DNA from: Bacteroidales bacterium
GTDB taxonomy: Bacteria; Bacteroidota; Bacteroidia; Bacteroidales; UBA932
Direction of reading: 5' to 3'
NCBI GenBank assembly: GCA_017429475.1
Contig: JAFROX010000006.1
Coordinates: 126,008-190,007 of the forward strand
DNA length: 64,000 nt
Shown in pieces: positions 11,051-13,533 of the stretch (position 1 is the stretch's first letter; every line of letters begins with the position of its first letter). The position numbers and the translations under genes were made by a program. The notes under the pieces were generated by a model. The model had not been told where the DNA came from and ran no database searches. It worked only from the letters and a program-made list of their open reading frames with translations.

Positions 11051-11890
11051 CTATTTAAGGATTGGATTGAGTGCAACGCGGAGTTCCGGCTTGATTGCGT
11101 GGAGGTCCCGCTCTATGAGGAGATTCTTGAGCCCCGCATAGGGGAGCAGTTCTTCTTCAATGCTTTTAAGCGGGCGGTCCGAACCGAAATAAGCAGGGGC
11201 AAAAAGCTCCCAGAAACGGAATGCCAGGGCTTTGGGCATATGAAAAGTATCCATAATGAACGATTCTTCGCTTAATACGCAGCAAAGATATACCATTCCT
11301 ACGTCAAAAAGACGGTAACCGTAGCAGAAGTCGCCCAAGTCGATAAAAAACCGTTCGTTTCCGGAAATAATGGCGTTGCTGAACTGAAGGTCGCCGTGAA
11401 TTGCAGTGTCGGAGTCGGGAGCATCGGCGATGAAGCGGCAGAGCTTGTCCTTTTCGGAATTCGTGAAGAACGGGTTGTCTGCCAGAAGATGATAATATAC
11501 GTCTTTCACGCTTTCGAACTCAGCTGCATTCACGTGAACGCCGTGAAGATTGAGACACATTCCGGCGAATTCCGTGGCAAACTGCTCTACTTTTCCGGGT
11601 TCATCGGCAGTGGCTCTGGAATACGATTTCTTGTCACGGATTCGGTGGAACAGGATGCCGTAGCGACCGTCTTCGGTGACTACATAGTCGCCGGGTTCGG
11701 GAGTCGGAATGCCGAGGGCATACACTTTCCGGGCCTTCGTCAATTCCTGGACCGACTGGCTCTCCCTGCCAGGCAGGTATAGTTTCAGCATCACTTCCGG
11801 ATCGAGCTTGCTGCTGTAGCTTTCACCATTGAAGCCGCCGCCGGTCAGGACATAGTCGTCTATGGATATCTTAATGGCTTCCATTCCCAA
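11051..11890 (-). CDS. APH/choline-kinase-fold phosphotransferase family protein (substrate unknown)
   Basis: Catalytic loop HGDLQFSNAI (HxDxxxxN) and metal-binding IDLGDF. The start overlaps the upstream HD gene by 20 nt. Confidence 0.65.
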   Translation of the reverse strand: MGMEAIKISIDDYVLTGGGFNGESYSSKLDPEVMLKLYLPGRESQSVQELTKARKVYALGIPTPEPGDYVVTEDGRYGILFHRIRDKKSYSRATADEPGKVEQFATEFAGMCLNLHGVHVNAAEFESVKDVYYHLLADNPFFTNSEKDKLCRFIADAPDSDTAIHGDLQFSNAIISGNERFFIDLGDFCYGYRLFDVGMVYLCCVLSEESFIMDTFHMPKALAFRFWELFAPAYFGSDRPLKSIEEELLPYAGLKNLLIERDLHAIKPELRVALNPILK

Positions 11891-12458
11891 AAACCTGGTC
11901 GATCAGTTGTTCGAATTCCTTGAAGGCATATGTGTCTTTTAGTTCGCGAAGGGATTCCTCAAGCCCGCGATAATGCCATTCGTGGTCCTTGCGGTCCTTT
12001 GTATGGAATAGATTCCACAGATTATCCCCCTGCATTGCGTAGTCCCTGGCGATTGCACGCATATTGGACAGTTTGTCTCCCAAGGCTACGATCTTTGCTT
12101 CGAGCGGAGCGTCGGCGAGACGTTTTATTGCGTCGCGCTTGCGGCTGTGCCAGCTGTCTTCTTCGCTCACGCCTTCTTCGTAGGTGTCGCTCTCCCAGGC
12201 TACGATCGAGGCTACCCTCTCGCCGAATACGTCCTTGAGCTGCTCAAGCGTCACGTCAGTGTCTTCAACCGTGTCGTGAAGGACGGCAGCGGCGAGCAGC
12301 TCCTGGTCGGAGGTCATTGTGGCAACGATTTCCATCGCTTCCATAGGGTGGACTATATAGGGAAAGCCCTTTCCGCGACGTTCCGTTCCGGCGTGGGCTT
12401 TGACGGCAAAGATGATTGCACGGTCCAGAAGAGAAGTATCCATTTTCGTTTTTGCCAT
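11871..12458 (-). CDS. HD-domain small alarmone hydrolase (SpoT/Mesh1-type (p)ppGpp hydrolase domain only)
   Basis: 195 aa with AVKAHAGTERRGKGFPYIVHPMEAMEIV and AAVLHDTVEDT (HD...ED signature of RSH hydrolase domains). Confidence 0.75.
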   Translation of the reverse strand: MAKTKMDTSLLDRAIIFAVKAHAGTERRGKGFPYIVHPMEAMEIVATMTSDQELLAAAVLHDTVEDTDVTLEQLKDVFGERVASIVAWESDTYEEGVSEEDSWHSRKRDAIKRLADAPLEAKIVALGDKLSNMRAIARDYAMQGDNLWNLFHTKDRKDHEWHYRGLEESLRELKDTYAFKEFEQLIDQVFGNGSH

Positions 12459-12465
12459 ATCCGGG

Positions 12466-13533
12466 TTATTTCTGATTCATAAATGGCAGTCCGGCCGCCT
12501 GCTCGGCCATCATTTCGGCCATCATCTCGTTTCCTTGCGAAGGGCCGCTGAGCGCCTCGAGCATATGACGTATACCGGCCTTCCCGCCACCGTTCTTCAT
12601 TATGTATGCTATGCAAAGGTCCTGCGGGCCGAGCGAAGAAGAGATGATGTCGAGGTCGGTCAGCCCTATCTGGTGGCAGGCTATCTGGTATGCGGCGTCG
12701 AAATAATCCTGGACGAGGTGGGAGATGTCACCGAGAGTCTTCATTCCGAGCCACTTGAAGATTTCAAGATAAGGCAGAAGCGACACTTCCTGGATTTCAG
12801 CCTGGTTGACTGCTGCGATACGCTTGTTGAGGCTGTCGAACGGCCTCAGGTCAAGATAGCTGCGGTAAGAATCGCCGTCGAGGGGGACGTCGTCCAGATT
12901 GCCGCTGGCCACGAGAGCCTTCACCCGCCTCCTGTAGTCGGCGAGTTCGCTGCGTATTCTGCTGAACTGCTCGTCGGCCAGCTCAAGCATACCTGCAAGA
13001 CGGTTGAGGTTGCGCAGATAATTTTTCGGCACTTCGATTCCGCTCTTGTAGCCGGTGTCGTGGTTTATGTTGGCCCAGGCGTGCTGCAGGATTGTCCTTA
13101 TCTGGATTTCGAAACGGTAGGGGAAATCGCCCTGAGAACAGATATAGTGAAGCGACATATATCCGAAACTGTCGATTTCGTGAAGTTTGCGCTTGTCGAT
13201 GGTGTTCGTCCAGTCGATGTCGAAAAGACGGTCGATGGCCGAAGAAACCTTGTCCACGTCGTCGATGTAGAAAGTGATGACTCGGATTCCTATGATGTCC
13301 GTGATGTCAGCAAGGGTTTTGTACTTGTTCCCCTTCAGTTCCAGCTTGCCTGCGAGAGAATCTTCTGTCTTGACGCGGTATTCCAGTGCCGCCACGTGAA
13401 TGCCGGCCTCGTCAATGGTCCGCTTCAGCTTTTCAAAAGCTATGGCGGCCTCTTTTTCGAATTGAGGCAGCTTGTCGCGGTATTCCCTTAGAATCGCTTG
13501 GCAATGGGCATCCAGATGTCTCTCCATAAGCAA
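12466..13533 (-). CDS. RelA/SpoT-synthetase-domain protein (small alarmone synthetase) with a roughly 170-aa C-terminal extension of unknown function
   Basis: Nucleotidyltransferase core: [53 protein letters not shown]. There is no HD, TGS or ACT domain. Confidence 0.8.
   Translation of the reverse strand: [355 protein letters not shown]

Follow-up and report, generated by a model that had tools for sequence, protein, structure and literature searches.

A RelQ/RelP-like small alarmone synthetase encoded with a hydrolase, an APH-fold kinase and a partner switch in rumen and gut Bacteroidales

Introduction

The diguanylate cyclase of the SiaABCD system of Pseudomonas aeruginosa is controlled by a partner switch that consists of a PP2C phosphatase, a switch kinase and a STAS-like protein, and the HsbR-HsbA-HsbD and BgrSTUWV-BgrR systems are also partner switches with a diguanylate cyclase as output (PMC7647112). 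Here, we analyse a locus in which partner-switch genes adjoin a trio of genes encoding a small alarmone synthetase (SAS), a small alarmone hydrolase (SAH) and an APH-fold kinase. The trio is located in a 64-kb stretch of the genome of a Bacteroidales bacterium (GenBank assembly GCA_017429475.1, contig JAFROX010000006.1, positions 126,008 to 190,007), which we call the window; all coordinates below are positions in the window, unless a locus or genome label (L or G) is given. An initial annotation of the window had considered the trio as a toxin-antitoxin (TA) system or as a housekeeping alarmone module. We conclude that the trio, rather than being a TA pair, probably makes up the enzymatic half of a conserved signalling module with six parts.

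As in SiaABCD, a PP2C phosphatase, a Ser/Thr switch kinase and a STAS-like phospho-protein share an operon with the synthetase of a nucleotide second messenger, no sigma factor is encoded in the operon, and the sensor phosphatase is membrane-bound. However, the output in this case is a RelA/SpoT-type pyrophosphokinase instead of a GGDEF cyclase, an APH-fold kinase and a hydrolase of its own belong to the gene set, and the PP2C and GHKL kinase domains are usually fused into one protein.

The nearest relatives of the synthetase domain are RelQ and RelP (SAS1/SAS2) of Firmicutes, with which it shares conserved catalytic and G-loop-type residues. RelQ and RelP are single-domain proteins of ~210-230 amino acids (aa) that are regulated transcriptionally and, through pppGpp or RNA, allosterically. 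In contrast, the SAS in the window has 353 aa, carries an extra C-terminal domain (CTD) of ~150 aa, and is encoded together with a hydrolase and a partner switch.

Some toxic SAS (toxSAS) enzymes are also encoded with an SAH. The FaRel operon consists of three genes, AT2faRel, FaRel and the SAH ATfaRel, and SAH antitoxins neutralise toxSAS enzymes (PMC7229694). The locus in the window resembles this operon in that the SAS gene is directly followed by an SAH gene and three genes are tightly spaced. However, a kinase gene takes the third place instead of a gene for a Panacea-type antitoxin, the synthetase does not lie near the toxSAS enzymes of solved structure, the gene context that is conserved relates to signalling and not to TA or defence, and some lineages do without the SAH. 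CapRel(SJ46), a fused TA protein with tRNA pyrophosphokinase activity, is of similar length and likewise consists of an N-terminal synthetase and a C-terminal domain of ~150 aa, but the CTD in the window has no structural likeness to it, and the synthetase matches CapRel far less well than RelQ/RelP (E 4.8e-7 versus 4e-25). Long RelA/SpoT homologue (RSH) enzymes (Rel/SpoT) are comparable in that synthesis and hydrolysis of one messenger are encoded together and are presumably regulated in opposition. In our locus, however, the activities reside on separate proteins, and control would be exerted by a phospho-switch and a kinase, rather than by TGS/ACT domains and the ribosome.

Our literature searches found no description of an arrangement of a partner switch with an alarmone synthetase. 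What is new is the wiring of known kinds of parts (SAS, SAH and partner switch), along with two uncharacterised elements, namely the CTD and a kinase related to TIGR02172. For SAS and SAH enzymes, control has been described at the level of transcription and through allosteric nucleotides or RNA, and comparatively little is known about control after translation. If our interpretation is correct, the module would be a new route by which ligand sensing feeds into (p)ppGpp-type signalling in anaerobes that abound in the rumen and gut, and partner switching would extend to a second class of nucleotide messengers, after cyclic di-GMP. It would also provide testable roles for the orphan CTD, which is found in an SAS family of 905 clusters, and for TIGR02172 kinases, including hundreds of SAH::kinase fusions. 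The parts of the module are all soluble or have soluble domains, and they are amenable to work in E. coli and in vitro.

Genes of the trio and the adjacent partner switch

The open reading frames (ORFs) of the SAS, the SAH and the kinase are tightly packed on the minus strand. This layout, the 7 nucleotides (nt) between the SAS stop and the SAH start, the 195-aa length of the SAH and the motifs quoted in the initial annotation all agree with the ORF list of the window. The SAS gene (12466..13527, minus strand) encodes 353 aa from an ATG at 13527. The 355 aa given previously are correct for an ORF that begins with a TTG at 13533 (12466-13533), but the ATG is the likelier start, since homologues in databases have 353 aa. 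The pyrophosphokinase (SYNTH) domain covers residues ~1-205 (12913..13527, minus strand), including a long helix at 168-208. The remainder, from residue ~205 or ~206 to 353 (12469..12912, minus strand), is the CTD; the C-terminal extension that had been left unassigned is thus real, but comprises ~150 aa and not ~170. The SAH, an HD_4 protein, is encoded at 11871..12458 (minus strand). The kinase gene (11051..11884, minus strand) overlaps the SAH gene by 14 nt and encodes 277 aa from an ATG at 11884, which is the probable start because this length fits that of homologues. The earlier description of a 279-aa kinase beginning within the last 20 nt of the SAH gene applies to an ORF that starts with a TTG at 11890.

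The immediate downstream neighbours of the trio encode the partner switch, and a serpin gene lies upstream of the SAS gene. A 728-aa membrane sensor (8856..11042, minus strand) unites a dCache domain, a PP2C (SpoIIE) phosphatase and an RsbW-like Ser kinase in one protein, with Pfam scores of 93 bits for MCP-like_PDC_1, 165.8 bits for SpoIIE and 90.3 bits for HATPase_c_2. It is followed by a 100-aa STAS protein of the anti-sigma-antagonist type (8539..8841, minus strand; Pfam STAS 60 bits, TIGR00377 66.9 bits), which carries the motif ISSSGL at the place where SpoIIAA-type proteins are phosphorylated.

Conservation of the gene context

We collected 80 SAS loci from a set of genomes; most are from Bacteroidales of the rumen and hindgut, among them the isolate Prevotella sp. 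MA2016. Gene contexts were counted in the 52 of these 80 loci that extend at least 4 kb on each side of the SAS, using a tblastn map of genes within 7 kb, and the resulting numbers are approximate. STAS genes are near the SAS in 49 of the 52 loci and RsbW in 47; SAH and PP2C are each found in 39, and the APH-fold kinase in 36. All five of these occur together in 29 loci, and we observed more than 20 distinct gene orders. The antiporter encoded downstream of the STAS gene in the window is found in only 6 of the 52 loci, and serpin and YhfC genes in none. Thus, the synthetase is accompanied across lineages by the three parts of a partner switch, namely a STAS protein, a PP2C phosphatase and a Ser/Thr switch kinase. 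Other Bacteroidales families retain the set with its genes rearranged, and RsbW is either separate or fused. Prevotella-type loci have only RsbW-STAS-SAS, without an SAH, which indicates that the invariant core consists of the partner switch and the SAS. In the isolate Prevotella sp. MA2016 (L122), this minimal form comprises the sensor, RsbW, STAS and SAS. The SAH is missing from 13 of the 52 loci, and it and the kinase are linked genes that often join the core.

Within the genus of the window, the trio is syntenic in 13 of the 15 genomes that have the SAS, and the PP2C/RsbW fusion, STAS and the antiporter frequently come next. A check of conservation had been suggested along with the initial annotation, for which a lack of synteny in related genomes would have been unfavourable; such a lack was not seen within the genus. 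Sequence identities at the SAS locus of these genomes track the identities of the flanking genes. Across the order, full-length SAS orthologues occur in 4 of 209 sampled genera, i.e. that of the window and three more. Two of the latter keep the gene set, in the orders PP2C/RsbW-STAS-SAS-APH-SAH and RsbW, Cache-HAMP-PP2C, STAS, SAS, SAH::APH, and the third has SAS-SAH only. Even a member of the SAS family with 35% identity is still found in a SAS-SAH-STAS arrangement.

Two further observations concern the distribution of these genes. In L054 and L088, tandem duplicates of Cache-PP2C-RsbW plus STAS sets lie beside a single SAS. Additionally, orthologues with 53-70% identity are present in metagenome-assembled genomes (MAGs) labelled as Ruminococcus, Lachnospiraceae, Akkermansia and Fibrobacter (L059, L091, L093, L095, L113, L125 and L135). 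Either the genes have spread horizontally between anaerobes of the gut, or the contigs were binned wrongly.

The synthetase domain is related to RelQ and RelP

RelA_SpoT (PF04607) is the sole Pfam domain in the SAS and scores 76.2 bits, against a cut-off of 27. With a SYNTH domain above the gathering score and no HD, TGS or ACT domain, the protein has the composition that defines SASs within the RSH superfamily. In a phmmer search of the Protein Data Bank (PDB), its matches to RelQ/RelP have E-values of 7e-13 to 9e-10, compared to 0.7 for FaRel2. A profile of 25 family members gave the same picture: RelQ/RelP was matched at 4e-25 to 8e-22, CapRel at 4.8e-7, long Rel at ~1e-4 and FaRel2 at 0.02. 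This comparison covers solved toxSAS enzymes, and no FaRel structure is among the PDB matches. An AlphaFold2 model of the SAS has a mean predicted local distance difference test (pLDDT) of 91.9, and Foldseek searches with this model yielded RelQ/RelP as the top matches (5ded and 6fgk; E 1e-8, target TM-score 0.79-0.83), followed by the N-terminal domains of Rel and by CapRel; for RelQ/RelP and the toxSAS enzymes, this order agrees with that from the profile. The synthetase domain is thus RelQ/RelP-like by sequence and by fold. Such a placement had been proposed as a check in the initial annotation, where clustering with RelQ/RelP-type enzymes, coupled with harmlessness of the SAS when expressed alone, was named as the outcome that would speak against a toxin; sequence and fold, as far as they go, point to this outcome.

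However, the SAS is not an orthologue of RelQ, as it scores 59.7 bits with the RelQ equivalog model NF053588, far below the cut-off of 320 for this subfamily; by sequence and fold, RelQ/RelP are nevertheless its nearest solved relatives. In spite of identities of only 30-51%, the 25 family members are invariant at R51, K53, K61, D77, G80, R82, Y123, H127, E140 and Q142, which we take to be the ATP-binding Arg/Lys residues, the Asp of DxxGxR, the Tyr/His of the G-loop and the Glu/Gln of EIQIRT. Since these catalytic residues are conserved, the SAS is probably active, and it most likely makes (p)ppGpp-type nucleotides.

The C-terminal domain has a confidently predicted orphan fold

A structure prediction of the extension had also been suggested. 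When modelled alone, the CTD is predicted with high confidence (pLDDT 96.5, predicted TM-score 0.90) to be mainly helical with three short strands. Foldseek searches with this model found no matching fold in the PDB (best E 6.7) or BFVD (best E 2.8), and the CapRel structures 7ztb and 9erv are absent from the PDB matches. The CTD is therefore predicted to be an orphan fold. We had considered that it could be CapRel-like or sigma-like, and rejected both possibilities in view of these empty fold searches. A marginal profile match to the C-terminal domain of the RNA polymerase alpha subunit, a helix-hairpin-helix, concerns SAS residues ~245-301 (about 12625-12795). This match (columns 245-301, E 0.12-0.19) is not significant and was not seen by Foldseek.

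The CTD can be aligned across SAS family members with identities as low as 30%. An exhaustive database search with the SAS found 905 clusters (at 50% identity) with E<1e-30, many of them with 350-375 aa and aligned through the CTD. The CTD is thus old and widespread. Distant members of the family occur in mixed contexts, namely SAS-SAH-STAS, RecD2-SAS-SAH or solitary, and the solitary members adjoin TIR/LRR, AbiJ-domain or housekeeping genes.

The hydrolase and the kinase are linked

The SAH scores 69.4 bits with Pfam HD_4 (PF13328; cut-off 27.2), and its top PDB matches by sequence are the stand-alone SAHs 7qoe, 4yf1 and 7qoc (E 2e-20 to 5e-19). The motifs RRGKGFPYIVHP, LHDTVEDT and GDKLSNMR are present, and the HD, ED and N motifs are intact. 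The protein is thus predicted to be a stand-alone HD_4 hydrolase with RSH motifs.

The kinase scores 47.3 bits with Pfam APH (cut-off 23.2) and 211 bits with TIGR02172, narrowly under the cut-off of 228.2. This family was first defined on paralogues in Fibrobacter. The residues K34, E47, H163-G164-D165, N170 and D182 are invariant, and since these are catalytic residues, the protein is predicted to be a competent phosphotransferase. Neither sequence nor profile searches of the PDB gave a significant match to a solved relative, the best being a methylthioribose kinase at E 0.087. Our literature search found nothing on the TIGR02172 family or on fusions of SAHs with kinases.

Four independent lines of evidence associate the kinase with the other genes. 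Within the genus, kinase orthologues (at least 63% identity) are found in exactly those genomes that carry the SAS, and the genomes from which they are missing (G002, G003, G008 and G016) also lack the SAS. In nearly all cases the kinase gene adjoins the SAH gene, in either order, and in locus L029 the two form a single ORF of 475 aa directly after the SAS. Such SAH::APH fusions are also common in databases: a search retrieved 601 proteins at E<=1e-10, and HD_4 plus APH was found in 118 of the 120 best clusters, with 465-491 aa. Their gene contexts include SAS-fusion-STAS and fusion-SAS. The kinase is linked to STAS proteins as well. Two genomes of the genus encode paralogues of the kinase with an N-terminal STAS domain (419 aa at L140 2487-3746 in G018, and 384 aa at L141 2258-3412 in G005), and in G012 the kinase gene directly follows PP2C/RsbW-STAS, with SAS-SAH on a separate contig. 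Based on its presence and absence, its adjacency to and fusion with the SAH, and its links to STAS, we consider the kinase a true member of the module. The initial annotation had already singled it out as a coupled third component unlike those of described systems, and this view, as well as a functional coupling of the three genes, is supported by the synteny, the presence/absence pattern and the SAH::APH fusions; the papers that we searched also do not contain it.

The idea that the APH-fold kinase stands in for a missing RsbW was rejected as a general rule: L038, which seemed to lack RsbW, has a stand-alone HATPase_c_2 gene of 136 aa, and both kinases are present in most loci. As minor observations, the gene of each STAS::APH paralogue has a generic HD-domain protein gene in front of it and a DUF5722 gene behind it, and Y_phosphatase3 (PF13350) genes are found directly after TIGR02172-like kinases in two loci (L142 3472-5378 and L136 7001-9195), where one of the kinases is fused to an SAH. 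The latter arrangement suggests that these neighbours are a pair acting on a shared substrate.

Proposed function and alternative explanations

We infer the product of the SAS, the protein contacts, the direction of control and the kinase's substrate from gene context and homology. In the signalling module that we favour, the membrane sensor, with its periplasmic dCache domain, PP2C phosphatase and RsbW-like serine kinase, would set the phosphorylation state of the STAS protein. This would be a partner switch without a sigma factor of its own, whose output would be the SAS, as a RelQ/RelP-like pyrophosphokinase. Contact with the STAS protein or the RsbW domain would most likely be made through the CTD. 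The dedicated SAH would clear the product and thereby reset the signal. The APH-fold kinase would work physically with the SAH and the STAS protein in the same unit, most likely either by regulating the hydrolase branch, to which it would link STAS, or as an additional switch kinase. The initial annotation had the alarmone feeding the switch; we regard control of the synthetase by the switch as the likelier direction.

Some of our data do not fit this proposal easily. The CTD is also present in solitary SAS family members without a partner switch, and so it cannot be purely a docking domain for STAS or RsbW. Similarly, RsbW and the APH-fold kinase coexist in most loci, which implies that the kinase is not simply a kinase of the STAS protein. 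In 3 of the 52 loci, SAS-SAH-APH is found without a switch gene within 7 kb. The presence calls made with tblastn overlook divergent genes, such as the stand-alone RsbW in L038, which is why the context counts are approximate, and many loci derive from MAGs, whose binning is uncertain. It could also be the alarmone that controls the switch.

A more specific version of the signalling module can be proposed only tentatively. In this version, the three enzymes would amount to an RSH protein that has been split and is gated from outside: a periplasmic ligand would act through Cache-PP2C-RsbW on the STAS protein, which would toggle synthesis (via the CTD) and hydrolysis (via the kinase) in opposite directions. 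If so, small alarmone enzymes would for the first time be seen to be controlled post-translationally by a phospho-switch, and the uncharacterised TIGR02172 kinases would gain a function.

The resemblance to toxSAS systems merits consideration, as the direct succession of SAS and SAH genes is the layout of FaRel, and the length and architecture of the SAS with its CTD resemble the fused CapRel. Under this explanation, the SAS would be a growth-arrest toxin of the FaRel/CapRel type, the SAH a type IV antitoxin that breaks down the toxin's product, the CTD a fused regulatory or antitoxin domain, and the kinase an extra regulator. The patchy distribution of SAS orthologues (4 of 209 genera) and the TIR/LRR or AbiJ-domain genes beside some solitary family members with 30-35% identity would also fit, as would a PADLOC match to PDC-S33 (50.7 bits). 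However, this match is confined to the synthetase domain and is weak in all 25 family members (best E 4e-21), and we therefore rejected it as a sign of membership in a defence system. Furthermore, RelQ/RelP are much nearer to the synthetase domain than CapRel or FaRel2 are, and the fold of the CTD matches neither CapRel nor any other solved structure in the PDB, as opposed to the antitoxin domain expected of a CapRel-type protein. The SAS persists without an SAH in Prevotella-type loci, and its conserved neighbours are sensor and signalling genes. Around the trio we found no Panacea/DUF4065-type antitoxin, phage genes or defence island, and the position upstream, where a compact FaRel-type operon would have a Panacea/DUF4065 gene, is taken by a serpin. 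Within the genus, identities track those of flanking genes, and the GC content of the trio region is even throughout and matches that of its flanks. Taken together, the RelQ/RelP affinity of the synthetase, the orphan fold of the CTD, the absence of the SAH in some lineages, the non-mobile signalling context and the even base composition do not support the toxSAS explanation put forward in the initial annotation, and we consider it very unlikely. The alternative offered there, a housekeeping module tied to the partner switch, came nearer to the mark, although the antiporter that it included is not a conserved partner. A stricter form of this alternative is that SAS and SAH are a constitutive housekeeping pair that maintains an alarmone set point, with the kinase and the partner switch merely unrelated neighbours in the operon. 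The RelQ/RelP-like synthetase domain is compatible with this possibility, as is the presence of two long RSH genes in the genome, which is seen in many bacteria with an accessory SAS, and the tight spacing extends over eleven co-directional genes, including the unrelated serpin and YhfC. However, serpin and YhfC accompany the SAS in none of the 52 loci, whereas STAS, RsbW, SAH and APH were kept through many rearrangements. Since the kinase is also tied to SAH and STAS by fusions, and shares its pattern of presence and absence with the SAS, we regard this explanation as highly improbable.

A serious rival, although on balance unlikely, is that the APH-fold kinase and the HD hydrolase work against each other on one phosphorylated small molecule, for which the SAS supplies or shares the substrate. 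In detail, a guanosine nucleotide or an alarmone intermediate, for instance, could be phosphorylated by the kinase, which would thereby produce or lengthen a nucleotide messenger that the HD protein would degrade, in analogy to the pair of HD and SYNTH domains in long RSH enzymes. Bifunctional fusions of making and breaking activities are typical of enzymes of messenger turnover, such as long RSH enzymes and PFK2/FBPase2, and SAH::APH fusions are widespread. In addition, 34 of the 36 APH-bearing loci (among the 52) also have an SAH, the catalytic residues of the kinase are invariant, and the APH family consists mostly of small-molecule kinases, with a methylthioribose kinase as the nearest PDB match, if only at E 0.087. 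On the other hand, we know of no APH-fold nucleotide kinase, and the module already has a dedicated synthetase in the SAS. Moreover, kinases of this family are also fused to STAS domains and paired with the protein-phosphatase-like Y_phosphatase3 genes, which points to a protein substrate or to regulation at the protein level.

Neighbouring genes and genomic setting

The gene downstream of STAS (7052..8542, minus strand) encodes a K+/H+ antiporter with a TrkA_C (RCK_C) domain (NCBIfam NF003716 518.7 bits; Pfam Na_H_Exchanger and TrkA_C). TrkA_C/RCK_C-type domains bind nucleotide messengers in other K+ transporters. The antiporter travels with the module only in the genus of the window and a few relatives, and is a lineage-specific addition. 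The trio and these genes are part of a run of eleven co-directional, closely spaced genes, which includes a serpin and YhfC. As stated in the initial annotation, gaps downstream of the trio do not exceed 21 nt: 8 nt separate the kinase from the PP2C/RsbW gene and 14 nt the latter from STAS, the start of the antiporter, which is translationally coupled to STAS, overlaps the STAS stop by 4 nt, and YhfC follows after 21 nt.

A strong terminator-like hairpin (10 pairs and a T run) lies on the minus strand at 14838-14862, between two serpin genes; the transcription unit of the trio may thus begin at the second serpin gene (13544-14785). The Bacteroidetes -7 box TAnnTTTG occurs only at chance frequency, with zero copies upstream of the SAS. 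Short metatranscriptome contigs of low depth cover all three genes of the trio, and one of them spans the SAS/SAH junction, which is weak evidence and too sparse to delimit the transcription unit.

The host genome has ~2.0 Mb in 15 contigs, and a genome-wide search found no second copy of the SAS, SAH or kinase. The genome also encodes the two long RSH genes mentioned above, with open frames of 718 and 754 aa (G000:C14:193533-194501, ~4 kb beyond the end of the window, and G000:C1:90933-91928). One of these shares the contig of the trio, at a distance of ~55 kb.

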